The notes under the pieces were generated by a model. The model was not told the DNA's origin and searched no databases. It was given only the letters and a program-made list of their open reading frames with translations. 64,000 bases of DNA from a virus. The stretch spans positions 9,109 through 73,108 of IMG/VR virus record IMGVR_UViG_3300046331_000099; one strand, 5' to 3'. Positions 4,898 to 23,553 of the stretch are shown here, piece after piece. Every line of letters begins with the position of its first letter. Within the stretch, counting starts at the first letter, position 1. A program made the translations under genes and the position numbers.

Positions 4898-4923
4898 AAT
4901 CTCTTCTCCTAATCAGTAACTTT

Positions 4924-4952
4924 ATTATACCACAGTTCTTAGAGAAAGACAA
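4924..4952 (-). promoter_or_regulatory. sigma70-type promoter
   Basis: TTGTCT-N17-TATAAT. Confidence 0.65.
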
Positions 4953-5051
4953 CCACGCAGATTAAACCCATGATGACAATAAGGGCAATAGAGTCAGCCA
5001 GATCCTCTCCAGAACTAATACTTTTGGTTGACTTTAAGTAATCGTACCACT

Positions 5052-10929: not shown

Positions 10930-10970
10930 ATAAATTTCTTTCACATAACAGGCGAGATTTGCCTAAAAAC

Positions 10971-11114
10971 AACAGGTTAGTTTCCTACTTTTTTGTTTTT
11001 CATGAGAAAATCGAAAACTCATTAGACGGTGGGGGAGAGAGCGAACTCTCAGCGTATCCATCGTCAGTCCTTAGTGGATACGAGATCCTAAGAATTGTTT
11101 GCTGAACCTAACCT
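10971..11114 (-). ncRNA. CAGCA-stem RNA A (Y RNA-like candidate), in the leader of the DUF2828 gene
   Basis: 5' AGGTTAG-GTT-CAGCAA ... CTAACCT-GTT 3'; internal hairpins; begins just after a promoter. Confidence 0.7.
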
Positions 11115-11125
11115 AACGAAACTCT

Positions 11126-11154
11126 ATTATACTTCACACATACAATAAAGTCAA
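11126..11154 (-). promoter_or_regulatory. sigma70-type promoter for RNA A and the DUF2828 gene
   Basis: TTGACT-N17-TATAAT. Confidence 0.8.
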
Positions 11155-11161
11155 CAAAAAT

Positions 11162-11436
11162 AACGGGATGAACGGGTAAATAATTTTGGTTACTTAAACC
11201 ATCGTGTTCCTTTCGGCTTAGCCCCACGAGAATCGTCCAGTTCACTGGTATAGCCTGACAAGTTCAGGCAACTTGGTACACATTCGGGTGTAACTATCGA
11301 ACTCCTAATAGGGGTTCCAAGGCATAAGAGCATGCAATAGTCTTTCCAGCCTAGTTTCAGTTATGACGCCTTACGACGTTTCCTCCTGTTGAAACTACTC
11401 TTTAGGCAGTATTGTTTAATATGCTGCAATCATCCC
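11162..11436 (-). ncRNA. CAGCA-stem RNA B (about 275 nt)
   Basis: 5' GGGATGA-TTG-CAGCAT ... TCATCCC-GTT 3'; own promoter. Confidence 0.7.
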
Positions 11437-11448
11437 AATTCAAACTAA

Positions 11449-11477
11449 ATTATACATCATCTAGTCTTGCAAGTCAA
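11449..11477 (-). promoter_or_regulatory. sigma70-type promoter for RNA B
   Basis: TTGACT-N17-TATAAT. Confidence 0.8.
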
Positions 11478-11482
11478 GCACT

Positions 11483-11965
11483 TTATGCTGCTTTGCGATT
11501 AGACAAGATGTGTTTCATTCTATCAGCGCAGTAAGATGCAGCGAATGCGTTTGGCTTAACCAAAGGAATCACGTTGCACATACCACGGATGTAGCCAGTT
11601 GCTTCGTTGATTACGCAAGAACTACCATGCATTTCGTTTGGGTTGATGTCTAAGTGGACTTCCACTTCTCTGTCTTCCAAAACGTCATGTAGCTTTTGAT
11701 ACAATTCAGCAATTTTATAAACTTCATTCATCAAACGCATACGTGGACGATTCTTCTTTTGATCGTAGTCACGTTCACGTTGTACTTCACCGAAAATCTT
11801 GCAGCCGTGTTTACCATCAATGTGAACAACAACAGCAAGTGTGTAATCTGCATACCAGTCTTTACCAATATTAAATCGTTCAGAATCTCCACCGATGTAG
11901 ATTTTAGTTTCTGGACTTTGAGCCTCGATGAATGCTTTAACTTCATCGATATCGATTTTACGCAT
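11483..11965 (-). CDS. RNase H-like protein, YkuK/DUF458 family
   Basis: IYIGGDS, RLMNEVYK, EVHLDIN, KPNAFAASYCAD. Confidence 0.8.
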   Translation of the reverse strand: MRKIDIDEVKAFIEAQSPETKIYIGGDSERFNIGKDWYADYTLAVVVHIDGKHGCKIFGEVQRERDYDQKKNRPRMRLMNEVYKIAELYQKLHDVLEDREVEVHLDINPNEMHGSSCVINEATGYIRGMCNVIPLVKPNAFAASYCADRMKHILSNRKAA

Positions 11966-11995
11966 ATTACACCTCTTTCACCTCATTAAAAAAAT

Positions 11996-12069
11996 TGGAG
12001 CGGGATGAGAGAATCGAACTCTCAACAACAGATTGGAAATCTGTAGTTTTACCATTAAACTAATCCCGC
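11996..12069 (-). tRNA. tRNA-Gly(TCC)
   Basis: Cloverleaf, anticodon loop TTTCCAA, encoded CCA. Confidence 0.92.
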
Positions 12070-12075
12070 AATATT

Positions 12076-12152
12076 TGGCGAGCCGAGAGGGATTCGAACC
12101 CCCAACATATGGTTTTGGAGACCATCGTTCTGCCAATTGGAACTACCGACTC
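12076..12152 (-). tRNA. tRNA-Trp(CCA)
   Basis: Loop CTCCAAA, T-loop TTCGAAT, CCA end. Confidence 0.9.
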
Positions 12153-12313
12153 ATGTTTTGTAAGACCTCTTGGGTCTCATCATTATTTCGAGTCAGCTTT
12201 TCTTCTGCCTCGGAATTCTGTTTGTTTTTGTTACCCCAGATAGCATCGTATCCGTTGTCCCATTTATCTTTATCTTCTGGACGACGTTTGTCGCCTTTAC
12301 CACCATCACTCAT
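12143..12313 (-). CDS. small hypothetical protein (MSDGGKGDKRRP...)
   Basis: AGGAG RBS before ATG 12313; its TAG stop lies inside tRNA-Trp. Confidence 0.6.
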   Translation of the reverse strand: MSDGGKGDKRRPEDKDKWDNGYDAIWGNKNKQNSEAEEKLTRNNDETQEVLQNMSR

Positions 12314-12321
12314 ACTTACTC

Positions 12322-12984
12322 CTATAACCACTCAGCAAAGAAATACTGATTGAGTTTCTTTGGTACAGATTTAGTTATTCGTTGTCCATGAAGAGTACCA
12401 CCCTTCCACGACACCATTCTATTATACACGTTCTTTACTTCACATGTCAAGTCGAAGTTGTCGTCGTGTTCTTTACGCATACGCTTAAATTCTTGTAAGT
12501 CTATCTTACCTGCACGATACAACTCACCTGGAATTGTATATTCGTCAATACATCGTTTGACAATTTCTTGTTCATCCCAATCAATATGATCTTTGAATCT
12601 ATGTATTGTTACTCCAGATTCTGGATCTGGGTTTGGTGTGAGTAAAATTTGCCCACAAAACGCCATTCTGTATTCTTCAACTGTTGCTCTGCAAACATCT
12701 GGATTCTTACCGTCCATATGAGTAGTCGAAACATTAAACAGTTCGTCTACATCGTTGTACTGATGTTCCATAAAGAAGGTAGTCAGTTTAATCTTATTAG
12801 GATCAACACCATGGATAGAACAAAGAGCATTCTTTACTCCATCAAATGTAGGCTTACTCATCATCTCTAGACTAATACTTCTGTTTCCAGTACCACAACC
12901 AGAAATAGGAAATTCGTTAACCAATCCAAGTATATAATCTGGTTGTGTGTAAAAATTATCAAGAACTTTGATGTCTGTTATCAT
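12322..12984 (-). CDS. 2OG-Fe(II) oxygenase-like protein (DUF6445-like)
   Basis: VLDNFY start; HMD...ILLTP.P.P.SG...NVYNRMV...LHG. Confidence 0.7.
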   Translation of the reverse strand: MITDIKVLDNFYTQPDYILGLVNEFPISGCGTGNRSISLEMMSKPTFDGVKNALCSIHGVDPNKIKLTTFFMEHQYNDVDELFNVSTTHMDGKNPDVCRATVEEYRMAFCGQILLTPNPDPESGVTIHRFKDHIDWDEQEIVKRCIDEYTIPGELYRAGKIDLQEFKRMRKEHDDNFDLTCEVKNVYNRMVSWKGGTLHGQRITKSVPKKLNQYFFAEWL

Positions 12985-13352
12985 AATTTATCTATCTTAA
13001 GTTTTGTGTTTCTTGGTTCATACTTAAATCGATTGAACCAATTCTTGTGTATCTTAACAGAGAACGAAACATCATTTTGTTTGATGCAGTAGTACAGATT
13101 TTTATACAAAGATGATAGTAAGTTCAACTCGTACATATCTCTGTATAACTCATCAGTGATATCATCTTCGATATCTTTAGTCCAAATTAAAGCAACTTTA
13201 GTTTTCTGAACTCTCACAACAACAGAAAGGTTATAAACTACTTTGTTATCTACAATTATAGAATCAACACCAAGCGAAATGCTATCACCATCAGATATTC
13301 TTGACGCTATATGTTCTATGTCTAACTCATGAGCCATTAGAATGGTATCCAA
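12981..13352 (-). CDS. hypothetical protein
   Basis: 123-aa ORF overlapping both neighbours, AT-rich. Confidence 0.6.
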   Translation of the reverse strand: MDTILMAHELDIEHIASRISDGDSISLGVDSIIVDNKVVYNLSVVVRVQKTKVALIWTKDIEDDITDELYRDMYELNLLSSLYKNLYYCIKQNDVSFSVKIHKNWFNRFKYEPRNTKLKIDKL

Positions 13353-13813
13353 TTTTCTTCTTCACGCAATGAAGAATGTATTCTAATAAGAATCATAAGA
13401 AGTGGTTGCCCATCACAAGTGACAGTAAATTCTTCTTTATGGTGCGGAGATATTAGAATAGTTGGATCATTCAACTCGATCTCTTGAGTCTGGCCATCTA
13501 CTGAGAAAGATAGTTTATTTACATTCGGATTTGCAAACAACACACCAAAGTATTCATGGTCACGACTATCAGTCACTCTTGTATTACTGTGAATCAAAAC
13601 TGGTTCTGCGCTCACGAAGTATTTTTTGAAGTTGGTATTTGGCCAGTTACAGTAGAACGCATCTTGAATCATCTCGTATAGATGCCATGTGTGAACAGAC
13701 ATGGTATTAAACAGATGCTTATGCTCTGGAAAGTTTACCATGTAATCTACAAAACCATCAGTTAACTTTTGGTCTTCTCTAGTAACAAAATATTTTAGAT
13801 ATTTCTTTGCCAT
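13337..13813 (-). CDS. hypothetical protein (possible degenerate cupin/DSBH fold)
   Basis: 158-aa ORF in an AT-rich operon. Confidence 0.6.
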   Translation of the reverse strand: MAKKYLKYFVTREDQKLTDGFVDYMVNFPEHKHLFNTMSVHTWHLYEMIQDAFYCNWPNTNFKKYFVSAEPVLIHSNTRVTDSRDHEYFGVLFANPNVNKLSFSVDGQTQEIELNDPTILISPHHKEEFTVTCDGQPLLMILIRIHSSLREEENWIPF

Positions 13814-13814
13814 A

Positions 13815-14345
13815 TCACTCGAAACAAAAATTCATTATACACCTAATATCAGTGGTTGGTTTGGATCCATGGTGCTGAAGGTTACCATCAAACACGATAA
13901 CATTACCACGTTTATGTTCTGATCTAACCAACTCACTACCATCTGGATTATACAGAACTGTTGGTCCATCACTTTCGTTTATATAATAAACAGCACTGTA
14001 GTATGGAGTCGGAAAGTTTGGTAAATCTACATGTTTAATCGGAGGATTAACACCTGCAGTAACTAACTGTAGTTGACATATCATATTGTGTATCCTAGTA
14101 GCACCTAACTTTTCTGGGACTATCTTAAACACATCATACATTTCACGATCCAACATTTTACCATTTTGATAAACAGGGTGGCGAAACGAACTTATATTTC
14201 TCTTAGCTTCGTCGCTAACATTATATGCATTACTCGTGTAGGCTGAGAACCTATTAAATATCCACTGAGTGTTAGCATTAAGAACAGATGCCTCTAAAAG
14301 ATTTTGCTGTTCTTCAGTTAATAAATTTTCTACAATTTTATACAT
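13815..14345 (-). CDS. 2OG-Fe(II) oxygenase superfamily protein
   Basis: Start MYKIVENLL at 14345 (the longer ORF runs through tRNAs); HVD...YYINESDGPT...FDG..HH...R. Confidence 0.8.
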   Translation of the reverse strand: MYKIVENLLTEEQQNLLEASVLNANTQWIFNRFSAYTSNAYNVSDEAKRNISSFRHPVYQNGKMLDREMYDVFKIVPEKLGATRIHNMICQLQLVTAGVNPPIKHVDLPNFPTPYYSAVYYINESDGPTVLYNPDGSELVRSEHKRGNVIVFDGNLQHHGSKPTTDIRCIMNFCFE

Positions 14346-14350
14346 ATTTT

Positions 14351-14426
14351 TGGTGCCCCTCACATGATTCGAACACGTGACCTTCACATTACTAATGTGC
14401 TGCTCTACCAACTGAGCTAGAAGGGC
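14351..14426 (-). tRNA. tRNA-Thr(AGT)
   Basis: Loop TTAGTAA (A34), CCA end. Confidence 0.85.
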
Positions 14427-14435
14427 ATTAAATTT

Positions 14436-14514
14436 TGGCTCTGCATCTGGGGTTCGAACCCAGCTAATCATTGATTAACAGTCAAGTCCGTGCACCTAGC
14501 TCGGATTCTGCGGA
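14436..14514 (-). tRNA. tRNA-Asn(GTT)
   Basis: Loop CTGTTAA, enlarged D region, GCCA end. Confidence 0.85.
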
Positions 14515-15032
14515 ATAACATCTTGCCAACGAATGACAAGACTCTCATTATATGTATCTCGATTTCCCTTACGCTTATTTTCAAGCGAAGGTAAGTACTG
14601 CAAATTATCTTGGTGATGTAAACCACCCCTTGATATTGGAACTATGTGATCAACTTCACATCCTTCTGGTTTTGCCTTGTAGATTTTATCAATCAATGCA
14701 AGGTCAGCATCGACAGCTAGAGCATTTACCTTTCTAGCTTGATACCTACGAACAGTTGCCAATCGCCTTGCAGCGATTTCTTCAACTGGCTTCCTGCCTT
14801 TTTTATCCCAATACTCAGTCGTTCTCTGACGCTTTATTTCTTTCATCTCATTAGAGTGTTTCCAACCAGACTTACCTTTTGCTGGATGTCCATTTTCCTT
14901 GAATGTTTTACTGACAGAAACACTCTTCTTTAGTTTGTCTTCATCTGACCATGTTCTAGAATTAGCACAAGATTTAGAACAGAACCTTCCACTCATCTCA
15001 TGTTCAATTCCACATTTAGGGCATATCTTCAT
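14496..15032 (-). CDS. free-standing HNH homing endonuclease in the tRNA cluster
   Basis: MKICPKCG..FCSKSCAN Zn finger, NUMOD-like KHSNEMKE, EVDHIVPISRGGLHHQDNLQYL...EN..K. Confidence 0.85.
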   Translation of the reverse strand: MKICPKCGIEHEMSGRFCSKSCANSRTWSDEDKLKKSVSVSKTFKENGHPAKGKSGWKHSNEMKEIKRQRTTEYWDKKGRKPVEEIAARRLATVRRYQARKVNALAVDADLALIDKIYKAKPEGCEVDHIVPISRGGLHHQDNLQYLPSLENKRKGNRDTYNESLVIRWQDVIPQNPS

Positions 15033-15046
15033 AAAGACCTCATAAC

Positions 15047-15123
15047 TGGTGCGGATGGTGAGACTCGAACTCACAAAATTTGGCTTCTAAGACCAACACG
15101 TATACCAATTCCATCACATCCGC
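15047..15123 (-). tRNA. tRNA-Leu(TAG), short variable region
   Basis: Loop CTTAGAA, 77 nt. Confidence 0.85.
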
Positions 15124-15131
15124 ATAAACTT

Positions 15132-15208
15132 TGGTCGGAATACAAGGATTCGAACCTTGGACCCCCTCGTCCCAAACGAGGTGCGCTACCAGACTGCGCT
15201 ATACTCCG
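15132..15208 (-). tRNA. tRNA-Pro(TGG)
   Basis: Loop TTTGGGA. Confidence 0.92.
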
Positions 15209-15213
15209 ATAAT

Positions 15214-15288
15214 TGGTGCATCGTGACAGTTTCGAACTGCCGACCCGCTGCGTGTAAGGCAGCCGCTCTACCACTGAGCTAACGATGC
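15214..15288 (-). tRNA. tRNA-Val(TAC)
   Basis: Loop CTTACAC. Confidence 0.92.
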
Positions 15289-15343
15289 GAAATTTATTAC
15301 ACACTACTTATCTTATTATACGCCATGTGTAAGGGCGAGGCTC

Positions 15344-15418
15344 TGGTGGTGATGGTTGGATTTGAACCAACGACCATCTCCGTATGAAGGAGGTGCACTA
15401 CCACTGTGCTACATCACC
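15344..15418 (-). tRNA. tRNA with CAT anticodon (Met or Ile2)
   Basis: Loop TTCATAC. Confidence 0.85.
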
Positions 15419-15523
15419 ATATTGAAACACACTTACCAGAATCGAACTGGTGACCAGATACTATCGATCCAGCTATGCTCCACATAACAGCCTAGCTTCA
15501 GCTGTAGTATGCTTCAATATGGT
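15416..15523 (-). ncRNA. family-2 long-stem element (copy 4) with an internal T-arm-like hairpin
   Basis: 5' ACCATATTGAAGCATACT pairs with AGTGTGTTTCAATATGGT; contains ACCAG-TTCGATT-CTGGT. Confidence 0.6.
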
Positions 15524-15593
15524 GCCCCATGACAGAATCGAACTGCCTTAGCCTGATTACAAAACAGGAGTAATACCAATATACGAATAGGGC
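15520..15593 (-). tRNA. tRNA-Thr(TGT)
   Basis: Loop TTTGTAA. Confidence 0.88.
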
Positions 15594-15597
15594 AAAT

Positions 15598-15716
15598 AAC
15601 AGAATCGCTTTTTACGTGCTACCATTACACCACACTGAAGACCAACTCAGCGCTGGGATTCGAACCCAGACCCTCTTTTTTACAGAAAGATTATTTTTAA
15701 TTGCTGTAACGATTCT
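15598..15716 (-). ncRNA. CAGCA-stem RNA C with circularly permuted tRNA module (YrlA-like)
   Basis: 5' AGAATCG-TTA-CAGCAA ... T-arm CTGGG-TTCGAAT-CCCAG, loop-closed acceptor CGCTGAG/TTCAGTG, D-arm GTGT-AATGGTA-GCAC ... CGATTCT-GTT 3'. Confidence 0.8.
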
Positions 15717-15729
15717 AACGGTCTTAATC

Positions 15730-15790
15730 AACAGGATAGCTTTTGTCGCTAGACAACCATAGTTAGCTTTGTGATTGCTGTAACTATCCT
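15730..15790 (-). ncRNA. CAGCA-stem RNA D (minimal)
   Basis: 5' AGGATAG-TTA-CAGCAA ... CTATCCT-GTT 3'. Confidence 0.7.
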
Positions 15791-15795
15791 AAAAC

Positions 15796-15870
15796 TGGTT
15801 GCGGGTGGTGGAATCGAACCACCTATCTTCAGCTTATGAGACTGACGAGTTACCATTTCTCCGACCCGCA
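15796..15870 (-). tRNA. tRNA-Met(CAT), initiator-like body
   Basis: Loop CTCATAA; acceptor TGCGGGT/ACCCGCA. Confidence 0.85.
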
Positions 15871-15875
15871 ATAAC

Positions 15876-16256
15876 TTACTTCTTTGACCACTGCCAGATG
15901 TCATCACGTGTCATCTTGCGTTGGTCACCTTTACCGTACTTTGTCACCATAACATGTATGCGTGGAACAATATACATGAAGAACATGACATCATTCGCTT
16001 TGCTTCTCTTCTCAACAGAAGAGTACATTTTACCTGCAAGAAACGCTCTTGCCAAGGTAGTTGCTCGGGATTCGTTACGGACATTCCAACGACGATGGTT
16101 AATCAACTCATCTAGCTTTCGTGCCAGAGTAAACGCTGATGTCTCGTCGCTTGAACGATGATACTTGATTTGCTTCTTAAGTTTAGCTTCTTCGTGACGA
16201 ATAACTTGTGGCTCAAGAGCGAGGTGTTTTGCTTTAATTTTTAGTTCGATACTCAT
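15876..16256 (-). CDS. basic hypothetical protein within the tRNA cluster
   Basis: 126-aa ORF with AAGGAG RBS. Confidence 0.8.
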   Translation of the reverse strand: MSIELKIKAKHLALEPQVIRHEEAKLKKQIKYHRSSDETSAFTLARKLDELINHRRWNVRNESRATTLARAFLAGKMYSSVEKRSKANDVMFFMYIVPRIHVMVTKYGKGDQRKMTRDDIWQWSKK

Positions 16257-16320
16257 TTAATTTCTCCTTGTGTTATAAAATTGTTTTCAATGCCCAAGAA
16301 GAAACTTACGGAGGGCGAAT

Positions 16321-16341
16321 CTACAAACGGAAATCTTTCAT
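16321..16341 (-). CDS. putative minigene MKDFRL-UAG
   Basis: GAAAGGAAAACAG-ATG AAA GAT TTC CGT TTG TAG, followed by a GCCC...GGGC hairpin. Confidence 0.4.
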   Translation of the reverse strand: MKDFRL

Positions 16342-16364
16342 CTGTTTTCCTTTCAATAAAAAGT

Positions 16365-16439
16365 TGGTGCGTCTGACAGGAATCGAACCTGCTCTCTGGA
16401 GTTTTAGAGGCTCTTGCTATACCATACAGCTTCAAACGC
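16365..16439 (-). tRNA. tRNA with CTA anticodon (amber-suppressor-like)
   Basis: Standard numbering gives loop CTCTAAA; anticodon stem has two mismatches; T-arm and ACCA end intact. Confidence 0.7.
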
Positions 16440-16459
16440 ATAATTGTATTTAGCAATTA

Positions 16460-16671
16460 AATTTGTAAGTAGTGCCACCATCATTATAGGCACCATTCAC
16501 CCGTGTAATAAACTCGAGCGGGACTCGGTACGTCACTTGGGATACTAGTCCAGTTAGCAACCAAACTGCGCCGCTCTTCCGAGCAGCTGGGAGTTGAACC
16601 CATCACCTTCTACTATTTCGTCCCTTCGAAGAAGACTAGATAGCGTGACATTCTCTTGCTGACACTCACAA
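16460..16671 (-). ncRNA. CAGCA-stem RNA H (about 212 nt) with a second permuted tRNA module
   Basis: 5' TTGTGAG-TGT-CAGCAA ... TGGG-TTCAACT-CCCA, GCTGCTC-GGAA-GAGCGGC, CAGTT-TGGTTGCT-AACTG ... CTTACAA-ATT 3'. Confidence 0.7.
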
Positions 16672-16675
16672 AACT

Positions 16676-16750
16676 TGGCGGTCTTATGGGGTAACGATCC
16701 CCATCTACAGCAGTGACAGTGCTGTGTGCGTCCATGAACACTTTAAGACC
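16676..16750 (-). tRNA. tRNA-Asp(GTC)
   Basis: Loop CTGTCAC; atypical T-loop ATCGTTA. Confidence 0.85.
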
Positions 16751-16882
16751 AAAATATGTGGCATTACGAACTTTAGCCGTATCTCTATCGTGGATACCGA
16801 ATAGACCGACTGGCGTCGACCCGCACATGTAACACGCCAGACCCTTTGTCTGGATTGACAAGCAACTGACGTTGCTCGATTC

Positions 16883-16968
16883 TGGTGGATGCCGCTGGAC
16901 TCGAACCAGCAATGCCGTAAGGCGGAAGATTTACAGTCTCCTGGGGTTACCAATTTTCCTACACATCC
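16883..16968 (-). tRNA. tRNA-Tyr(GTA)
   Basis: Loop CTGTAAA, long variable arm. Confidence 0.9.
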
Positions 16969-16975
16969 AAAAACT

Positions 16976-17050
16976 TGGCACACGATACGGGAATCGAACC
17001 CGTCTTACCAACGTGAAAGGCTGGTGTCCTAGCCGATAGACGAATCGTGC
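16976..17050 (-). tRNA. tRNA-Glu(TTC)
   Basis: Loop CTTTCAC. Confidence 0.9.
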
Positions 17051-17058
17051 ATATAACT

Positions 17059-17087
17059 ATTATACATCAACTTGCGCTGCAAGTCAA
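17059..17087 (-). promoter_or_regulatory. internal sigma70-type promoter in the tRNA array
   Basis: TTGACT-N17-TATAAT. Confidence 0.8.
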
Positions 17088-17095
17088 CAACTATC

Positions 17096-17173
17096 TGGAG
17101 TACGAGGTGAGATTTGAACTCACGATTTTACGGATTTGCAATCCGTTGCAATTGACCACTCTGCCACTCGTAC
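17096..17173 (-). tRNA. tRNA-Cys(GCA)
   Basis: Loop TTGCAAA, U discriminator. Confidence 0.9.
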
Positions 17174-17180
17174 ATAAACT

Positions 17181-17257
17181 TGGTGCGGATAGCGAGACTC
17201 GAACTCGCAGAATCCTGCTTTTGAGACAGGCACGTATACCAATTCCATCATATCCGC
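17181..17257 (-). tRNA. tRNA-Leu(CAA), short variable region
   Basis: Loop CTCAAAA; body nearly identical to Leu(TAG). Confidence 0.85.
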
Positions 17258-17258
17258 A

Positions 17259-17333
17259 TGGTGGGCTGAGAGAGAATTGAACTCTCACTCGATCGATTAT
17301 GAGTCGACTGCTTTACCATTAAGCTATCAGCCC
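17259..17333 (-). tRNA. tRNA with CAT anticodon, probably Ile2 (lysidine)
   Basis: Loop CTCATAA; GGGCT acceptor typical of Ile. Confidence 0.8.
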
Positions 17334-17337
17334 AAAC

Positions 17338-17414
17338 TGGTGCGCCCAGAGGGATTCGAACCCCCGACATGCGGTGTAGAAGACCGCTGTTCTATCCAAC
17401 TGAACTATAGGCGC
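17338..17414 (-). tRNA. tRNA-Arg(TCT)
   Basis: Loop CTTCTAC. Confidence 0.92.
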
Positions 17415-17421
17415 ATAAACT

Positions 17422-17505
17422 TGGTGCGAGTGGCGAGACTCGAACTCGCAAACCCAAAGGTGGCAGATTTTAAGTCTGCTGCGTATACCATTCCACCACA
17501 CTCGC
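17422..17505 (-). tRNA. tRNA-Leu(TAA)
   Basis: Loop CTTAAAA, variable arm present. Confidence 0.92.
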
Positions 17506-17510
17506 AAATT

Positions 17511-17599
17511 TGGCGGAGAGTGTGGGAATCGAACCCACTCACCATATCACTACGATGACAGATTAGCAATCTGCTGCATTACCATCCTGCCCACTCTCC
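17511..17599 (-). tRNA. tRNA-Ser(GCT)
   Basis: Loop TTGCTAA, long variable arm. Confidence 0.92.
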
Positions 17600-17601
17600 A
17601 A

Positions 17602-17730
17602 TTATCTTATACGTCTTATCAGTCTCAACCAATAGTACTTTAATCCACGAACTGGGATCTCAAAATAGAACCCCACTTCTTTCGGAATGGAGCCATATGC
17701 TTTATCTAATGTTTCTTTTGCTTTTGGCAT
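17602..17730 (-). CDS. small hypothetical protein (42 aa, not in ORF track)
   Basis: AGGAGA RBS; MPKAKETLDKAYGSIPKEVGFYFEIPVRGLKYYWLRLIRRIR. Confidence 0.55.
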   Translation of the reverse strand: MPKAKETLDKAYGSIPKEVGFYFEIPVRGLKYYWLRLIRRIR

Positions 17731-17810
17731 TCCATTCTCCTAATGTTGGCCACGATTTTTGTCATTCTTACTTAGGCTAACGACGACTCCCTAAGATCAG
17801 TTGCAACACA

Positions 17811-18389
17811 TTACATTGTTGGTCCATTGCCGTTTTTGAATCCGACAGTACCACCTTCGTTCTGAATGCGCTTGATTACGTCTTCAAACAAGATGGGTCT
17901 GAAGTCTGTCTGTTCGACGCACACGCACTGATAACGAGGATCGATTCGTTCAACACCGTACTGGTCAGTCTTCATAACACGATTGGTATGAGTGTGACCA
18001 TGGATGTTAGTACCGAAACGATACAAGTTGCTTTCATGGACTGGGATATGAGTTAAAATCATACCATTCATCACATGTGAACCACGAATGTCTCTAAAGA
18101 ATGGAGTGTATTCCTCTAATCTAAAGATGTCGTGATTACCTTTAATTAAAACCTTGTCACCATTCAAACGATGCATAATCTTTAAGGCTTTACGGTTAAT
18201 GACAACGTCACCTAAGTGATAGACTTTGTCAGTTGGACGAACTGTTTCGTTCCACATCTTAACCATGGCTTCATCCATTTCTTCAGGATCAGTCCACGGT
18301 CTAATCTTCGTCACTCCGTCAGCTTCAGTAAATTTACATACACCCATGTGACCAAAGTGCGTATCGCTTACTAAGAATACACTCGGCAT
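17811..18389 (-). CDS. calcineurin-like metallophosphoesterase
   Basis: SDTHFGH, HLGD, KGNHD, LTHIP, IHGHTH. Confidence 0.9.
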   Translation of the reverse strand: MPSVFLVSDTHFGHMGVCKFTEADGVTKIRPWTDPEEMDEAMVKMWNETVRPTDKVYHLGDVVINRKALKIMHRLNGDKVLIKGNHDIFRLEEYTPFFRDIRGSHVMNGMILTHIPVHESNLYRFGTNIHGHTHTNRVMKTDQYGVERIDPRYQCVCVEQTDFRPILFEDVIKRIQNEGGTVGFKNGNGPTM

Positions 18390-18413
18390 ATCAAACTCCA
18401 TTTCAAGTTAAAC

Positions 18414-18471
18414 AACAGGATGCTTATTTTTCAATTACAAGTTGAATTTTTTTGCTTGCTGGACGCATCCT
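18414..18471 (-). ncRNA. CAGCA-stem RNA E (minimal)
   Basis: 5' AGGATGC-GTC-CAGCAA ... GCATCCT-GTT 3'. Confidence 0.7.
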
Positions 18472-18476
18472 AAAAG

Positions 18477-18569
18477 TGGCGGAAAAGCAGAGGAGTCGAA
18501 CCCCATCCCATTTCTGAGAACCGAGTTTTCAAGGCTCGTCGCCGCACCAACGCAGCTGCATTACTTTCC
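18477..18569 (-). tRNA. tRNA-Ser(TGA)
   Basis: Loop CTTGAAA, long variable arm. Confidence 0.85.
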
Positions 18570-18574
18570 ATATT

Positions 18575-18664
18575 TGGCGGAGATAGTAGGATTTGAACCC
18601 ACGAGACCTTTCGATCTGCTTGTTTTCTAGACAAGTGCCATAAACCAGACTCGACCATATCTCC
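18575..18664 (-). tRNA. tRNA-Ser(AGA)
   Basis: Loop CTAGAAA (A34), long variable arm, GCCA end. Confidence 0.85.
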
Positions 18665-18671
18665 ATTATAC

Positions 18672-18727
18672 AACAGGATTCGCTTTTTTTCATTAACAGT
18701 GAAATTTTTAATTGCTGAATGAATCCT
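18672..18727 (-). ncRNA. CAGCA-stem RNA F (minimal)
   Basis: 5' AGGATTC-ATT-CAGCAA ... GAATCCT-GTT 3'. Confidence 0.7.
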
Positions 18728-18732
18728 AAAAC

Positions 18733-18806
18733 TGGTGCGGGGTAAGAGAATCGAACTCTTGACAAGACGTTGGCAACGTCCTATTTTACCATTAAACTAA
18801 CCACGC
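18733..18806 (-). tRNA. tRNA-Gly(GCC)
   Basis: Loop TTGCCAA; A rather than U discriminator. Confidence 0.85.
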
Positions 18807-18811
18807 ATAAC

Positions 18812-18887
18812 TGGTACCTCTGGAGAGAATCGAACTCCCGTCTCAGCGTTCGTAGCACCGTATTCTAATCCGTTGAACTACAGAGGC
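18812..18887 (-). tRNA. tRNA-Arg(ACG)
   Basis: Loop CTACGAA. Confidence 0.9.
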
Positions 18888-19039
18888 ATAAATTAGTGCA
18901 CATCTATCAATTGGGACTCTTACCCCAGTGTTTCTCAGCATCCAGTTGCCCTTTGCTGACGCAGTATACACTGCAAAGACGACCGAGATGGCGGGATCGT
19001 CTACTGTTTACTTTTCGGTTAATTACTCCGACTAATTCT

Positions 19040-19115
19040 TGGTCTCCGTAGAAGGATTCGAACCTTCACCCCACCGCCCCAAACGGCGAGTGCAACCTGA
19101 TAACACTTTACAGAG
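19040..19115 (-). tRNA. tRNA-Pro(TGG), second copy
   Basis: Loop TTTGGGG. Confidence 0.85.
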
Positions 19116-19120
19116 ATAAC

Positions 19121-19195
19121 TGGTACTGCGTACGGGTAACGATCCCGTCTAGTCAGCTTGAAAGGCTGATGACCTCACCTGAAGTCGAACGCAGT
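19121..19195 (-). tRNA. tRNA-Glu(TTC), second copy
   Basis: Loop CTTTCAA; T-loop ATCGTTA. Confidence 0.8.
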
Positions 19196-19203
19196 ATAAA
19201 AAT

Positions 19204-19294
19204 TGGTGGACAACAATGGGAATCTAACCCACTTCTTTCCCCTATGCTGTTAGGGAATTTCATGCCAGCAGCAGGCAATTGACACATCAAGTCC
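19204..19294 (-). ncRNA. atypical tRNA-like RNA or pseudo-tRNA
   Basis: GGAC...GTCC-ACCA ends, T-arm GTGGG-TTAGATT-CCCAT; central hairpin TTCCCTA-ACAGCA-TAGGGGA in place of an anticodon arm. Confidence 0.5.
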
Positions 19295-19299
19295 ATAAT

Positions 19300-19374
19300 T
19301 GGTGGAGACCGAGGAAATCGAATCCTTCTAGACATCCTCCTTGCAAGGGAGAACCGTAGCCCACTACTGTCCCC
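19300..19374 (-). tRNA. tRNA-Ala(TGC), reduced D-loop
   Basis: Loop CTTGCAA, G3:U70 pair. Confidence 0.8.
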
Positions 19375-19457
19375 AAATTAGGGTTAGTTTCTATAGCACC
19401 CATTGAAACTAACAAACGTTGAGTAACCATACATCAAAACAAGATTACTATTTGCTC

Positions 19458-19536
19458 TGGCTCCGTGTGTGAGGATCGAACTCACCTAATCATTGATTAA
19501 CAGTCAAGTCCTTGCACCATGCTTGGATTTCACGGA
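19458..19536 (-). tRNA. tRNA-Asn(GTT), second copy
   Basis: Loop CTGTTAA; similar to 14436-14514. Confidence 0.85.
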
Positions 19537-19544
19537 ATAAAAAT

Positions 19545-19613
19545 AACAGGATGATTTTGACGAACATGTCAAATTATAAGTTTGGTGTTCTTGTTGATTG
19601 CAGAACTCATCCT
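19545..19613 (-). ncRNA. CAGCA-stem RNA G (CTGCA variant)
   Basis: 5' AGGATGA-GTT-CTGCAA ... TCATCCT-GTT 3'. Confidence 0.65.
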
Positions 19614-19618
19614 AAAAC

Positions 19619-19692
19619 TGGCGACGCATGGGAGAATCGAACTCCCGTCTATGGATAGACAATCCACGATAATGCCATTATATGAATGCGCC
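19619..19692 (-). tRNA. tRNA-Asp(GTC), second copy
   Basis: Loop TTGTCTA. Confidence 0.85.
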
Positions 19693-19698
19693 GTAACT

Positions 19699-19773
19699 TG
19701 GTCCTCTCGAAAGGAATCGAACCTTAGGTCTATCGCTTATCAAGCGAGTGCTCTACCATTGAGCTACAAGAGG
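19699..19773 (-). tRNA. tRNA-Ile(GAT)
   Basis: Loop TTGATAA. Confidence 0.88.
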
Positions 19774-19781
19774 AAATACTT

Positions 19782-19857
19782 TGGTGCCTATGAGTGGACT
19801 CGAACCACTAACACATGGATTTTCAATCCACTGCTCTACCATTGGAGCTACACAGGC
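19782..19857 (-). tRNA. tRNA-Phe(GAA)
   Basis: Loop TTGAAAA. Confidence 0.92.
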
Positions 19858-19861
19858 AAAT

Positions 19862-19936
19862 TGGGGAGATGTACGAGAATCGAACTCGTGATAACGGAAT
19901 CACAACCCGTGGTTTTACCACTAAACTAACAACTCC
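19862..19936 (-). tRNA. tRNA-His(GTG)
   Basis: Loop TTGTGAT; G-1:C73 pair. Confidence 0.9.
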
Positions 19937-19940
19937 ATAA

Positions 19941-20026
19941 ACCATATAGAAACACACTGGCTTGCAAGACTCCTACTAACCTTTCGATAGATGTCGCAGT
20001 TAGTATTCAATGTGTTTTCATATGGT
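19941..20026 (-). ncRNA. family-2 long-stem element (copy 5)
   Basis: 5' ACCATATGAAAACACATTG pairs with CAGTGTGTTTCTATATGGT; starts in the ACCA of tRNA-Lys. Confidence 0.6.
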
Positions 20027-20097
20027 AGGGGCACAGAGAATCGAACTCTGATTACATGGTTAAAAGCCACGTACTTTAGCCGTTAAGTTATACCCCC
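20023..20097 (-). tRNA. tRNA-Lys(TTT)
   Basis: Loop CTTTTAA. Confidence 0.9.
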
Positions 20098-20100
20098 ATA

Positions 20101-20176
20101 TGGTCCACTCTCTGAGATTCGAACTCAGCCTTCATAGGTTAAGAGCCTAGTATGCTGCCAACAACATCTAGAGTGG
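20101..20176 (-). tRNA. tRNA-Lys(CTT)
   Basis: Loop CTCTTAA. Confidence 0.85.
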
Positions 20177-20236
20177 TTGTACGTATTATTTTGATTTTAC
20201 GTGCCAACTCAGACCATACGGGGGATCTGAGTGACA

Positions 20237-20260
20237 CTAACGTTTACCTGAACGTTTCAT
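20237..20260 (-). CDS. putative minigene MKRSGKR-UAG
   Basis: AAGGAGAGTAGC-ATG AAA CGT TCA GGT AAA CGT TAG, directly followed by a long hairpin. Confidence 0.45.
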   Translation of the reverse strand: MKRSGKR

Positions 20261-20280
20261 GCTACTCTCCTTGTTAAACT

Positions 20281-20353
20281 TACCAAATAAAAACATACTA
20301 CTCATCTGCTTATTAGGCAATTTGAATGTTCGGCAGTATGTTTTTATTTGGCA
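20281..20353 (-). ncRNA. family-2 long-stem element (copy 6)
   Basis: 5' TGCCAAATAAAAACATACTG pairs with TAGTATGTTTTTATTTGGTA; starts in the GCCA of tRNA-Gln. Confidence 0.6.
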
Positions 20354-20422
20354 CCCGAGGTAAGAATCGAACTTACAATAACAGAGTCAAAGTCTGGTGT
20401 GTTACCACTACACTACTCGGGA
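20349..20422 (-). tRNA. tRNA-Gln(TTG)
   Basis: Loop CTTTGAC; first tRNA of the array. Confidence 0.9.
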
Positions 20423-20523
20423 ACATACGACTTAGGCAATACTAACAGGGCATTCGATATCGGCGTTAGCCAAAATCACTTACCCCGACTTTCTAACCTA
20501 AGTCGCAATAAAAACTGGTGCAG

Positions 20524-20536
20524 ATTGTTAAAGATC
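20524..20536 (-). promoter_or_regulatory. rrn-type boxA antitermination element
   Basis: GATCTTTAACAAT vs E. coli rrn boxA TGCTCTTTAACA(ATT); between the promoters and the first tRNA. Confidence 0.6.
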
Positions 20537-20573
20537 TAAAGCTAATCAAGAGATCAAGATCAGCGAGGCATTT

Positions 20574-20810
20574 ATTATACATCAGCTAAGATATAAAGTC
20601 AACACCTTTTTGGATAACCTTACTAACCGTAGGGTCTTTCCAAGGTTTCATGGGAATCGCTTCTCATTCAACCTAAGACATAATCTTACATCATGTCAGC
20701 GTTACTGTCAACAACTTTCTGAAAGACTTTACTGTTAGTAGGGTTTCTTTCATCATCGTTCTTCACACTAACTAAGCATTGATTATACAGCACAAGTGCT
20801 TTACCGTCAA
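20574..20810 (-). promoter_or_regulatory. three tandem sigma70-type promoters for the tRNA array
   Basis: TTGACT-N17-TATAAT (20574-20602), TTGACA-N17-TAAGAT (20683-20711), TTGACG-N17-TATAAT (20782-20810), about 100-110 bp apart. Confidence 0.85.
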
Positions 20811-20852
20811 CACCTTTCTTTAAAGACCCCACATCGTGGTAGACTATAAAGC

Positions 20853-20887
20853 AAAAAACCCTCGAGATTCACATCTTCGAGGGTTTT
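20853..20887 (-). terminator. intrinsic terminator (attenuator candidate)
   Basis: AAAACCCTCGA...TCGAGGGTTTTTT. Confidence 0.8.
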
Positions 20888-20906
20888 GGTAAAGAGACTT
20901 ATTCTC

Positions 20907-21038
20907 TTACATCTTCTTACCAAAACCCTTCGTATCCTCAATCGCATAGCCAGAACCTTCTACAAATGATGGGCGTGTGCTTGTCCATCCGTTATTCAAC
21001 GGTAGCTGTTTATGCATTTTGGAACAAGAGAGTAACAT
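20907..21038 (-). CDS. putative leader peptide containing all 20 amino acids (43 aa, not in ORF track)
   Basis: MLLSCSKMHKQLPLNNGWTSTRPSFVEGSGYAIEDTKGFGKKM; its 3' end is complementary (13 bp) to the terminator 5' arm; no clear SD. Confidence 0.6.
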   Translation of the reverse strand: MLLSCSKMHKQLPLNNGWTSTRPSFVEGSGYAIEDTKGFGKKM

Positions 21039-21048
21039 AGTAGAAAGA

Positions 21049-21144
21049 ATTCTATCCTAGAAGTTGATTGAAGTCAAGTGGTTTGTTCAACCACCTGTAG
21101 ATCTATTTAGACAATATCTTAGCTCAGTTTGAACTATTTGTCAA
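21049..21144 (-). promoter_or_regulatory. promoters upstream of the leader ORF
   Basis: TTGACT-N17-TAGAAT (21049-21077), TTGACA-N17-TAAGAT (21116-21144), late-like CTAAATA (21104-21110). Confidence 0.65.
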
Positions 21145-21155
21145 GTATTTTGAAA

Positions 21156-21716
21156 TTATTTTAGTAAGTCTGCCACACACTGTGGAACTACTGGCTCCAA
21201 CATCCTCTCAGGATGCCAAACAATACCAAAGATTGGAAGATGTTCATGTCTGAACGCTTCGATGGTCTGATCAGCCTCATGCATTGCAATTGGAATCATC
21301 CCTTTACCAAGAGTCTTGATTGTCTGTCCGTGGTAACTATTTACAAGAACCTTCTTACCATCCATCACAACTTCATGATCTGTTTTATCATGAGTTGGCA
21401 CCAAATTCCAATCAATGTCATTCTTACCACCAGTAAGATCATTGATTGCAAAAGCACCATGACACACACCAAGGATCGGCTTTTTATTCTGCACGGCATG
21501 ATAGAACAATGCGTTCTCTGTGTAGTTTCTAGCAACAGAATCAGTGCCACCAGAAAGAACTAAACAATCATACTCGATGTCAGGAACAAATCCAGTATTG
21601 GCTACTGGAATGAGATGATGACTGCTTAGAAAGGAGTACCAACTTCTCTCCAAGCAGTCAAACAAGAAATTATTTGGAGGGATCCGAAAATCCCTCTGTG
21701 AAATCAAAATTTTCAT
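21156..21716 (-). CDS. class I glutamine amidotransferase / peptidase C26-like protein
   Basis: LVLSGG, PILGVCHG, VNSYHGQ, WHPE triad. Confidence 0.9.
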   Translation of the reverse strand: MKILISQRDFRIPPNNFLFDCLERSWYSFLSSHHLIPVANTGFVPDIEYDCLVLSGGTDSVARNYTENALFYHAVQNKKPILGVCHGAFAINDLTGGKNDIDWNLVPTHDKTDHEVVMDGKKVLVNSYHGQTIKTLGKGMIPIAMHEADQTIEAFRHEHLPIFGIVWHPERMLEPVVPQCVADLLK

Positions 21717-21733
21717 AACAAAGGGATTAGGTA

Positions 21734-22507
21734 TTAGACGCTAGCTTCTTTACCATTGAACGCAACACATAGGTCACGATGTGGTTCGCCATACGCTTCT
21801 AGCATGATTGCTTGAACTTCTGGAGAAGCAGTCTTGAAGTCACCCAAAGATGTGCAAGAACATTCGAACAAGTCCCAAACCATTTCTTTAACATGAGAAA
21901 GAGCTTGTGCTTGGGCTTCTGGAGTTGTTACCAACTTCTCGAGCATCAAACGACCAATGTTAGAGTGGAACTTCTCGTCACGAGCAACACGGTCATAACG
22001 CTTCTGGATGAACTCATCACCAGCGCATTGAGCCATTGTTTGCCATACTTTAGCAGCACGACCTTCAGCCATGTATTGGTACATGTGCATCATGATTGGA
22101 TTATCATGGGCTTCGTACTTCTGGATCAAAGATGCGCCCATACGAACGTCAACTTTACCATACTCTTTCCAGATTGCTTCTAGGTCTGGTGCTTCACCAG
22201 TCAAGTGCTCTAGAACTTCGTAAACGATACGGAAGTGTTCTGCTTCGTCCCATGCTTGCTTAGAAAGCAAACGGCATTCTTCTGGGTTAGTCAAAGCTGG
22301 TAGTTCGGAAACTTTCTTAGAAAGTTCGATCATGTTCATACGTTCGTTAGACAAACGGATGTGGAAGAAGTTAGCGAGCTTTTCTTTGTCGCCCTTTACT
22401 TCGTCGAAGAACTGACGTGTTTGGATCTCAGCCACTTTGTGTAGTGGCATGAAGGATTCCCACAGGTCGTCCAAGAATTCTTTTGCTGGTTTAGCAGTTG
22501 CTGTCAT
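21734..22507 (-). CDS. ferritin-like di-iron protein
   Basis: E...DEAEH...AEG...DEKFH paired ExxH motifs. Confidence 0.8.
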   Translation of the reverse strand: MTATAKPAKEFLDDLWESFMPLHKVAEIQTRQFFDEVKGDKEKLANFFHIRLSNERMNMIELSKKVSELPALTNPEECRLLSKQAWDEAEHFRIVYEVLEHLTGEAPDLEAIWKEYGKVDVRMGASLIQKYEAHDNPIMMHMYQYMAEGRAAKVWQTMAQCAGDEFIQKRYDRVARDEKFHSNIGRLMLEKLVTTPEAQAQALSHVKEMVWDLFECSCTSLGDFKTASPEVQAIMLEAYGEPHRDLCVAFNGKEASV

Positions 22508-22576
22508 TTGAGTTTTCCTTTAAGTATAAAAGTTAAAGTGTTGTTGAAATAGAGGCACATCTTGTACCTCATATTC

Positions 22577-22584
22577 TATTTATA
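22577..22584 (-). promoter_or_regulatory. T4-type late promoter
   Basis: TATAAATA. Confidence 0.65.
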
Positions 22585-22596
22585 AGAGAAATAGAC

Positions 22597-23553
22597 TCAC
22601 TTTTGGTTATTTTTTGATAAAACTGTATCTACAAGAGGTTGCCACTGTTTTTCACGTGTTTTCACCCACAATTTCATGGCTTCTGGGTTTTGTAGAACCT
22701 TGTTTTGAACCAATAGGTTGTCATAGAAGATAGCCTTAACTTCATCAGAATTCAAAGCCTTAGTGAACTCTCGGTTGTACCATTCGATAACATCTTTCGG
22801 TACACCAGCTGGAAGCATTAAAGCCCACATTCCAGATACATTGAAATTAGGAATAGCTGTATCCATAGTTTGGGCTTCTGGAATCTGAGCTAATGGTATA
22901 ATACCACTCAACGCTACAACTTGCACTCGTCCATCTCTATAGAATGGATTAGCCACTGCAGATGGGACGATAGCAAACCGTACATGACCACCAGCTACAT
23001 CGTTCAATGCATCGTTTGGACCTTTGTGGTCTACACGAACAACATCAGAGAACTGAACTTTTGCAGCAATAGATTCATAGACCAGTCTAGCACCACCGCT
23101 TGCAGCAATAGTTACCTTCTCGGTCTTAAGAGCCTGAACCAATTGTTTTGGAGTTTTTACTGGATCGCCAGACTTAGCCACGACAACGAATGGGCTAGTA
23201 GCAATATGAGTTGGATAGACAAAACTATCAACATTGTATGAACGACCATCACCTTGAACAGAAACCTTGTCCATAGCTGCAATCCCTGGAACAGAGACGT
23301 TAGTTACAGAGTACCCATCAGCTGGACGCTTGCTCAATTCTTCAGTACCAATAACACCACCAGCACCTGGACGATTAGTGATAACAAATTTTGCACCAGT
23401 GTTTTGTTCAACTTGTTTAGCTAGGACACGGAATGAGAGTTCATTCACACTTCCAGGTGTCCATGCCATAATCGCTTCAATCGGTTTTGTCGGTTGCCAC
23501 GCAAAAGCAGAAGCAGACATCACCATCAACAAACTAATTACGAGTTTTTTCAT
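22597..23553 (-). CDS. Bug/TctC tripartite tricarboxylate transporter substrate-binding protein
   Basis: Signal peptide; P.KPI, NRPGAGGVIG, PADGY, DVAGGHV, PAGVP. Confidence 0.9.
   Translation of the reverse strand: MKKLVISLLMVMSASAFAWQPTKPIEAIMAWTPGSVNELSFRVLAKQVEQNTGAKFVITNRPGAGGVIGTEELSKRPADGYSVTNVSVPGIAAMDKVSVQGDGRSYNVDSFVYPTHIATSPFVVVAKSGDPVKTPKQLVQALKTEKVTIAASGGARLVYESIAAKVQFSDVVRVDHKGPNDALNDVAGGHVRFAIVPSAVANPFYRDGRVQVVALSGIIPLAQIPEAQTMDTAIPNFNVSGMWALMLPAGVPKDVIEWYNREFTKALNSDEVKAIFYDNLLVQNKVLQNPEAMKLWVKTREKQWQPLVDTVLSKNNQK

Follow-up and report, generated by a model that had tools for sequence, protein, structure and literature searches.

We describe a short genetic element that stands ahead of the transfer RNA (tRNA) genes in a group of large phages and that is probably a ribosome-mediated, translation-coupled transcription attenuator tuned to the whole pool of charged tRNAs. 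The element was noticed in a stretch of 64,000 nucleotides of viral DNA (positions 9,109 to 73,108 of IMG/VR record IMGVR_UViG_3300046331_000099), which we call the window; the record itself is 73 kb long and is estimated to be 43% complete. At the center of the element is an open reading frame (ORF) of 43 codons that contains all 20 amino acids. An initial annotation of the window had read this ORF as the leader of an attenuator acting as a general sensor of the tRNA pool. Every comparative test available to us supports that reading, and it is from these tests that we infer the function. Among relatives the element keeps its anatomy, its hairpins covary, its ORF retains the set of 20 amino acids, and it holds a fixed place before tRNA arrays.

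The element and its promoter occupy ~230 bases, and all of its features, together with the tRNA array, lie on the minus strand of the window (Table 1). We checked the layout given in the initial annotation directly on the sequence. The ORF is present with its 43 codons and all 20 amino acids. Of the codons, 33 are distinct, and every one of these occurs within the first 37. Its last codons contain a 13-base stretch, segment A, that is the perfect complement of a downstream stretch, segment B. Segment B in turn overlaps the 5' arm of an intrinsic terminator, a hairpin followed by a T-run, which folds as had been described although a simple terminator scan does not list it among its matches. Upstream of the ORF we found a promoter-like site, P2, from which the predicted near-leaderless messenger RNA (mRNA) would begin with a leader of about 3 bases, and beyond the terminator we found promoter-like sites P3, P4 and P5 where three bypassing promoters had been placed. 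The promoter-like sites between 19000 and 23000 total 10, which is not above the number in shuffled sequence (8.4, standard deviation 2.8). The fold of the 201-base transcript beats 200/200 shuffles (z = -4.25).

We propose that the element works as follows. Transcription from P2 would give a leaderless or nearly leaderless RNA whose first codons open an ORF of ~40 codons with every amino acid. The last codons of this ORF would serve as segment A, the 5' arm of a long hairpin whose 3' arm, segment B, doubles as the 5' arm of the terminator. A ribosome that translates to the end would cover segment A, B would then pair with the terminator 3' arm, and transcription would stop before the tRNA-Gln gene. 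A ribosome held earlier, because any one charged tRNA is short or because translation is impaired in general, would leave segment A free to compete for B, and more polymerases would continue into the tRNA genes. This would create a feedback in which more phage tRNAs are made when the tRNA pool fails to support translation. The biological signal could be starvation, the decay of host tRNAs or a tRNA-cleaving defence. We give an even chance to the fullest form of this proposal, in which one leaderless ORF of ~40 codons is a complete test of the charged-tRNA pool, calls on all 20 amino acids and on almost every tRNA species of the phage, sets transcription of the array through a poised terminator and antiterminator, and so restores whichever tRNA the host loses, be it to decay after infection, to starvation or to tRNA-cleaving defence nucleases.

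Relatives of the element were collected in several ways. A DNA search of deposited phage genomes with positions 20600-21800, in near and distant modes, gave no match. We then searched viral contigs with the neighbouring amidotransferase, without using the peptide, and retained 80 of the 127 relatives found. Within the close group (L002-L012), 9/9 loci with a complete region have P1, a hairpin, P2, the small ORF, a hairpin, the terminator and tRNA-Gln in this order; L011, which is cut inside the ORF, and L005, which is cut before it, are outside these nine. Among the distant amidotransferase loci (L013-L081) a regular-expression scan found the peptide motif absent, and most of those examined have another gene order. 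A search with the peptide alignment gave 43 loci from viral contigs and 45 from metagenome contigs, and a library of 1.84 billion representative proteins, searched with a profile, yielded 35 hits. Four of these hits, long multi-stretch proteins, were judged unrelated and not fetched. The 31 fetched proteins comprise 6 that are cut N-terminally by the gene call, 1 that diverges after the core and 24 that are readable at full length (33-46 residues). The library representatives are by construction at most ~50% identical to each other and overlap in part with the DNA-based sets; they consist of protein sequence, their starts were set from the profile alignment, and two were trimmed at the family's stop position, where the source reads on with Trp. 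Library proteins P0017 and P0019 have Trp at the family's stop and read on through the terminator region; the source may have translated TGA as Trp. No relative turned up when bacterial and archaeal genomes were scanned. The element is widespread in one group of large freshwater phages.

The full set of 20 amino acids is found in 0.8% of 43-residue windows drawn from 54 long ORFs of the window and in 2/116 of its small ATG ORFs of 35-50 residues. Since two small ORFs have the full set, the single ORF in the window is not significant by itself and the relatives decide. The viral contigs hold 29 distinct peptides of 37-45 residues, 24 of them with 20 residue types and 5 with 19 (Val is absent in 4 and Cys in 1). 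Of 10 further distinct peptides from metagenomes, 8 have 20 types and 2 have 19; in both sets together 32/39 have all 20 and the minimum is 19. Among the 24 readable library representatives, 20 have all 20 types, 3 have 19 and 1 has 17. The unconditional chance of a full set is 0.2-1.7% per peptide.

Using a column-specific residue profile and a fitted rate, we simulated how the peptides would evolve along the tree of the 33 distinct elements. The simulations produced a mean of 2.25 leaves with all 20 types (maximum 21) against 27/33 observed, and 0/3000 reached the observed number. When the root was forced to have all 20, the mean was 5.65 and the maximum 25, and again 0/2000 reached it. The null models treat columns as independent and use a tree of short sequences, which makes these figures approximate.

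The full set is retained while individual residues move. Cys, His, Gln, Val, Tyr and Glu occupy different alignment columns in different lineages: Cys is found near the N-terminus or after Gly-Trp, His and Gln exchange places, and Val, Tyr and Glu use 10, 4 and 5 columns, respectively. In pairwise comparison, the differing codons are synonymous in 2407 cases and non-synonymous in 7253, which argues that the residue set is kept and not the sequence. Judged from this comparison, the peptide appears hardly constrained outside a conserved core, Leu-Pro-Leu ... Gly-Trp ... Arg-Pro. In 49/53 distinct elements all the types present occur before the codon in which the G-run of segment A begins. On average, 19.70 types have occurred by segment A, 18.70 by three codons before it and 17.45 by five codons before it.

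We found that the first gene downstream of the element is tRNA-Gln, followed by a tRNA array, in 31/31 distinct elements with enough DNA. In 14 of the 31, tRNA-Gln begins 49-53 bases past the T-run and our scan found no promoter-like site in between; the other 17 have one to three promoter-like sites between terminator and array, for an overall range of 0 to 3. A promoter, then a strong terminator, then tRNA genes without a promoter-like site in between argues for regulated termination. The spacer of ~50 bases from T-run to tRNA-Gln is well conserved in the 14 elements without an intervening promoter (e.g. L111 and L101) and may be a context for tRNA-precursor processing. Five relatives are 96-100% complete (162-174 kb), and in each of them all tRNAs but one form a single array behind the element.

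The array of the window, as called by ARAGORN, has 31 tRNAs with 26 distinct anticodons, covering 18 amino acids plus one anticodon CTA. The initial annotation had credited it with tRNAs for all 20 amino acids, which does not hold for this contig, estimated to be 43% complete: ARAGORN finds no tRNA for Ala or Asn in its array. The arrays of the complete relatives cover 19-20 amino acids, and all 20 in 3/5. By simple wobble rules, the leader codons in the window are readable by 24/26 distinct array anticodons. Random 43-codon windows of phage genes touch 17.3 anticodons on average, and 24 are reached in 0.04% of 13241 such windows. The leaders of the five complete relatives touch 26/27, 23/26, 22/23, 23/26 and 25/25 of their array anticodons.

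The CTA-anticodon tRNA (16365-16439, minus strand), which ARAGORN labels 'Pyl', is amber-suppressor-like and lies inside the array. A CTA-anticodon tRNA is also found in the arrays of 3/5 complete relatives, and the leader ORFs of some relatives end in an amber codon. Just upstream of a tRNA-Ser, the stretch 18481-18569 (minus strand) matches the selenocysteine tRNA model below threshold (33.3 bits; cut-off 47) and may represent an additional tRNA-like gene not called by ARAGORN.

Retention of the full set and the reach of the leader codons bear on whether the element reads the tRNA pool at all. It could be a terminator coupled to translation that responds to the overall capacity of ribosomes or of translation, or to the stage of infection, with no sensing of individual charged tRNAs and no sensing role for the 20-residue composition. 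Such a terminator would also fit the anatomy and the model described below, single codons would give weak sensitivity to the shortage of one amino acid, and the modelled response varies with the position of the stall. It would leave unexplained why the full set is retained against the tree-aware nulls and why the leader codons touch nearly all of the array anticodons, and we consider it unlikely.

Several observations suggest translation of the leader ORF. Its frame is open in 33/33 distinct sequences, which the search guarantees only around the core motif, and both other frames contain stops in 33/33. Gaps within the ORF alignment are all in multiples of three. Nucleotide diversity at the three codon positions is 0.263, 0.235 and 0.325. 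The initial annotation had asked whether ORF length is conserved despite peptide divergence, and this is the case: at ~45% identity, the start at the promoter, the length (33-46 codons among relatives) and the stop inside the hairpin are all kept. In 23/33 sequences the second hexamer of P2 ends 6-7 bases ahead of the ATG, so that the transcript would start at or next to the ATG. The clade of the window and three others (8/33) have a distance of 10 bases, which corresponds to a leader of ~3 bases. In the two sequences that lack a P2-type promoter we found a Shine-Dalgarno-like stretch.

Four RNA-library runs were available as assembled contigs, and contigs from 3/4 cover the leader. A 513-base contig of a relative spans 20660-21083, bridging the terminator, and a 127-base contig spans 20852-20977, ending one base past the T-run. 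No contig falls on 21228-21671, a gap that carries no weight as evidence. As evidence of expression these contigs, which are uninformative on RNA ends, strand and level, are a weak hint.

The same contigs would also fit a small non-coding RNA made from the region, or a processing or stability element of the tRNA precursor, in which the ORF is incidental to a conserved structure. The stability of the fold and the covarying hairpins agree with this as well, and terminated attenuator RNAs are reported to function as small RNAs in other systems (PMC6614838). Against it, an untranslated RNA would not be expected to keep its frame open in every sequence with the other frames closed, to place its gaps in threes, to have an ATG at the predicted transcript start or to carry a Shine-Dalgarno-like stretch where the promoter is missing. 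Selection on residue composition would make no sense for such an RNA, and no Rfam family matches the element (scan of 10000-23000, E up to 1). We therefore regard a non-coding RNA as very improbable. The best Rfam match on the hairpin, to a microRNA family, scored 24.1 bits against a threshold of 90 and was rejected as sub-threshold.

Consensus folding of 33 sequences with RNAalifold gave a hairpin inside the ORF (H1), a second small hairpin beside H1, and the hairpin formed by segments A and B. A long-range pair also returned by RNAalifold (columns 20-21 with 207-208) was dropped from the counted structure. In the counted structure 98.8% of cells are paired, compared with 38-58% when the partners are slid. 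Changes on both sides of a pair occur in seven pairs and 36 cells. In four of five covariation measures 0/500 shuffles reach the observed value, and for the fifth, further pair types, 2/500 do. The A:B hairpin folds in 33/33 sequences with energies of -15.8 to -29.3 kcal/mol (mean -23.0). The terminator also folds in 33/33 (mean -17.6 kcal/mol), and its stems differ in sequence among relatives while the pairing is kept.

Within H1, two pairs change on both sides, in 10 and 11 of the 33 sequences, and pairing persists while two codons on the 3' side switch amino acids. H1 is a possible pause hairpin for RNA polymerase. The antiterminator covaries in relatives, as the initial annotation had suggested should be checked: in several lineages changes in segment A alter the C-terminal residues of the peptide and are matched in segment B. 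Predicted folds include a possible pairing of the segment A G-run with the Arg-Pro codons (20975-20970), which are nearly invariant and show no covariation. These codons are a candidate 'segment 1', resembling segment 1 of the trp leader in the folds we predict.

The compensatory changes also speak to a different explanation, in which the ORF, with a promoter and a terminator of its own, is an independent gene for a micropeptide that acts in trans, e.g. on a host protein. Its place ahead of the array would be a matter of gene order, and the full residue set would be a by-product. The persistence of Leu-Pro-Leu, Gly-Trp and Arg-Pro across representatives that are at most 50% identical agrees with this, as do the promoter-like sites after the terminator in 17/31 elements. 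However, the substitutions outside the core have a nearly neutral appearance, and the ORF nonetheless retains its full residue set while the rare residues shift position. Some of the core is encoded by paired RNA whose pairings either covary or do not vary at the third codon position, and the compensatory changes in the A:B stem override C-terminal residues. The 14/31 elements with no promoter-like site between terminator and array start also fit poorly with an independent gene, and the peptide has no Pfam match. We think a micropeptide gene improbable, and an attenuator remains the reading that we prefer.

We modelled the decision point with the T-run still in the hybrid and the RNA already outside the polymerase free to fold. 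The predicted barrier on the path between the antiterminator and terminator states averages 4.0 kcal/mol. A ribosome was then added to an equilibrium model as 24 occluded bases around the A site, with the probability that the terminator base forms as output. With the ribosome on the stop codon or on any of the last 6 codons this probability is 0.99. It is 0.15-0.40 for stalls 9-19 codons before the stop and 0.38-0.66 for earlier stalls, compared with 0.56 for free RNA. When the T-run is included in the model the values move toward termination. The modelled direction of the switch agrees with that proposed in the initial annotation, in that the terminator is predicted to be fully formed with the ribosome on the last codons and less so with a stall upstream.

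The predicted folds and energies also place limits on the size of the switch. The initial annotation held the two structures to be mutually exclusive. They do compete for the lower stem; the rest can coexist, and the two states are nearly isoenergetic. Overlap between antiterminator and terminator is limited to the lower stem and the A-tract, and for many sequences the fold of lowest energy has the upper A:B stem and a complete terminator side by side. The two states differ by a mean of -0.7 kcal/mol (range -7.3 to +2.0), and the element of the window itself favours the terminator by 3.1 kcal/mol. Since only the lower stem is shared, the states are nearly isoenergetic and the barrier is low, relief of termination is predicted to be graded, is probably partial and may be modest. 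In the equilibrium model relief is weaker when the ribosome stalls at early codons than when it stalls 9-19 codons ahead of the stop.

These limits weigh against a sensor of the whole tRNA pool, and other observations do so too. Each amino acid occurs once or a few times in the leader. The set is incomplete by one residue type in 7/39 distinct peptides and by three in one library representative. Asp is the last residue to appear, always 2 codons ahead of the G-run codon of segment A, and in 4/53 elements Val is inside segment A. The conserved core could indicate a function of the peptide itself. The initial annotation had also proposed a comparison of codon diversity with chance; beyond amino-acid diversity the excess is marginal, since synonymous resampling given the peptide yields P = 0.054 for 24 anticodons and P = 0.035 for 33 distinct codons. 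Selection at the codon level is suggestive at most, and we do not take it as established. In this phage three promoter-like sites bypass the terminator, and the arrays of relatives contain internal promoter-like sites. The leaderless mRNA is predicted from the spacing of promoter and ATG, and translation of the leader is likewise deduced from sequence. Support for the function as a whole comes from sequence comparison and thermodynamic models.

A similar layout was found outside the family. Loci L015-L018, which are identical to each other in the region, encode an amidotransferase 58% identical to that of the window. At 4835-5170, upstream of a tRNA array, they carry a different leaderless ORF of 67 residues with all 20 types; ~8 codons ahead of its stop lies a stretch that pairs with a terminator's 5' arm. 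In L179 (1130-1430), a relative of these loci, there is an early stop after the promoter-proximal ATG; an inner start opens an ORF of 49 residues with all 20 types and the same pairing and terminator. This second clade amounts to two data points, and a full set is less improbable at 67 or 49 residues. In it the layout is seen again around a different peptide, which suggests that the principle extends beyond one family.

Leader-peptide attenuators are found in the trp, his, leu, thr, ilv and phe operons of enterobacteria. The phage element shares with them a short ORF that follows the promoter and precedes the first structural gene, an intrinsic terminator ahead of that gene, and an alternative hairpin that includes the 5' arm of the terminator. 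As in these systems, a ribosome at the end of the ORF is predicted to favour termination and an upstream stall to favour readthrough. Its stop codon lies some 55-65 bases before the end of the T-run, a distance similar to that of trp, and the possible 'segment 1' and the internal hairpin as a potential pause site add to the resemblance. The element departs from them in one defining feature. Classical leaders gain sensitivity through codon runs, whereas the phage leader has no run of codons for one amino acid and instead contains all 20 at least once. Also unlike classical attenuators, it is leaderless, is encoded by a phage, controls tRNAs rather than enzymes, and has the 5' arm of its antiterminator inside the ORF, spanning the stop codon.

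Other systems resemble the element in part. A T-box riboswitch binds one specific uncharged tRNA directly and has no ORF. Like the phage element it takes tRNA charging as its input, chooses between terminator and antiterminator and precedes genes of the translation apparatus, but the phage element would read all tRNAs through the ribosome. The T-box covariance model had no match at the element in the Rfam scan. In coupling-dependent attenuators of the pyrBI type the distance between ribosome and RNA polymerase on a leader ORF likewise decides whether the terminator forms. The sense there is the opposite, since a close ribosome prevents the terminator and translation leads to readthrough, whereas here full translation is predicted to favour termination. 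Arrest-peptide leaders such as tnaC, secM and ermCL also have a short upstream ORF with conserved Trp and Pro-containing positions, and by analogy the conserved Trp and Arg-Pro positions might have an arrest-peptide role. Arrest peptides need a specific nascent chain together with a small-molecule or force signal, whereas the feature conserved here is the complete residue set.

Table 1. Features of the leader element and its surroundings in the window.
Feature	Position	Strand	Remarks
Class-I glutamine amidotransferase / peptidase C26 gene	21716-21156	-	Upstream neighbour of the element
Promoter-like site P1	21116-21144	-	10/12 matches; retained among relatives
Small hairpin between P1 and P2	21078-21095	-	Read by eye
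Promoter-like site P2	21049-21077	-	10/12 matches; would drive the leader
Leader ORF	20907-21038	-	43 codons and stop; all 20 amino acids; no Pfam family
Hairpin H1 inside leader ORF	20989-21002	-	Conserved, covarying
Arg-Pro codons	20970-20975	-	Nearly invariant; candidate 'segment 1' (anti-antiterminator)
Segment A, antiterminator 5' arm	20917-20929	-	Last ORF codons
Segment B	20880-20892	-	Pairs with segment A or with terminator 3' arm
Intrinsic terminator	20853-20887	-	Hairpin and T-run; -18.6 kcal/mol
Promoter-like site P3	20782-20810	-	Downstream of terminator
Promoter-like site P4	20683-20711	-	Downstream of terminator
Promoter-like site P5	20574-20602	-	Downstream of terminator
tRNA array	11996-20422	-	31 genes; first gene tRNA-Gln, 20349-20422 (ARAGORN)

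Some features around the element are recorded here in their own right. Transcripts from P1 would place the ORF behind a leader without a ribosome-binding site. At the position of the hairpin between P1 and P2, relatives carry a hairpin with a T-rich tail, as read by eye, and modules of hairpin and promoter like the P1-P2 region recur downstream of the terminator. Within the array there are sub-threshold Rfam matches to the Y RNA-like YrlA (19750-19813, 14372-14491 and 17308-17371). Adjoining the array, a gene at 9502-10944 (minus strand) encodes a DUF7788 and DUF2828 protein of 480 residues that belongs to PHROG 850, 'RNA-binding protein'. On the other side of the element, 21156-23553 (minus strand) holds auxiliary genes unusual for a phage, namely the amidotransferase/peptidase C26, a weakly PaaA/PaaC-like ferritin-fold protein and a TctC-family tricarboxylate-binding protein. 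In more distant relatives TctA-like membrane ORFs adjoin the amidotransferase, as judged by eye.

The attenuators known so far respond to one amino acid or a few and regulate the enzymes of their synthesis. Full-text searches of the literature, with subscription journals and supplements outside their coverage, returned no description of an all-amino-acid leader or of an attenuator before phage tRNA genes. If our reading is true, a leader with all 20 amino acids before tRNA genes would be a general cis-acting sensor of translational supply. Little is understood about how the expression of phage tRNA arrays is controlled, and this would be the first regulatory logic put forward for them. The compact element could serve as a reporter of charged-tRNA sufficiency. 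It also makes testable whether phage tRNAs respond when host tRNAs are lost, also where defence systems that target tRNAs are the cause.

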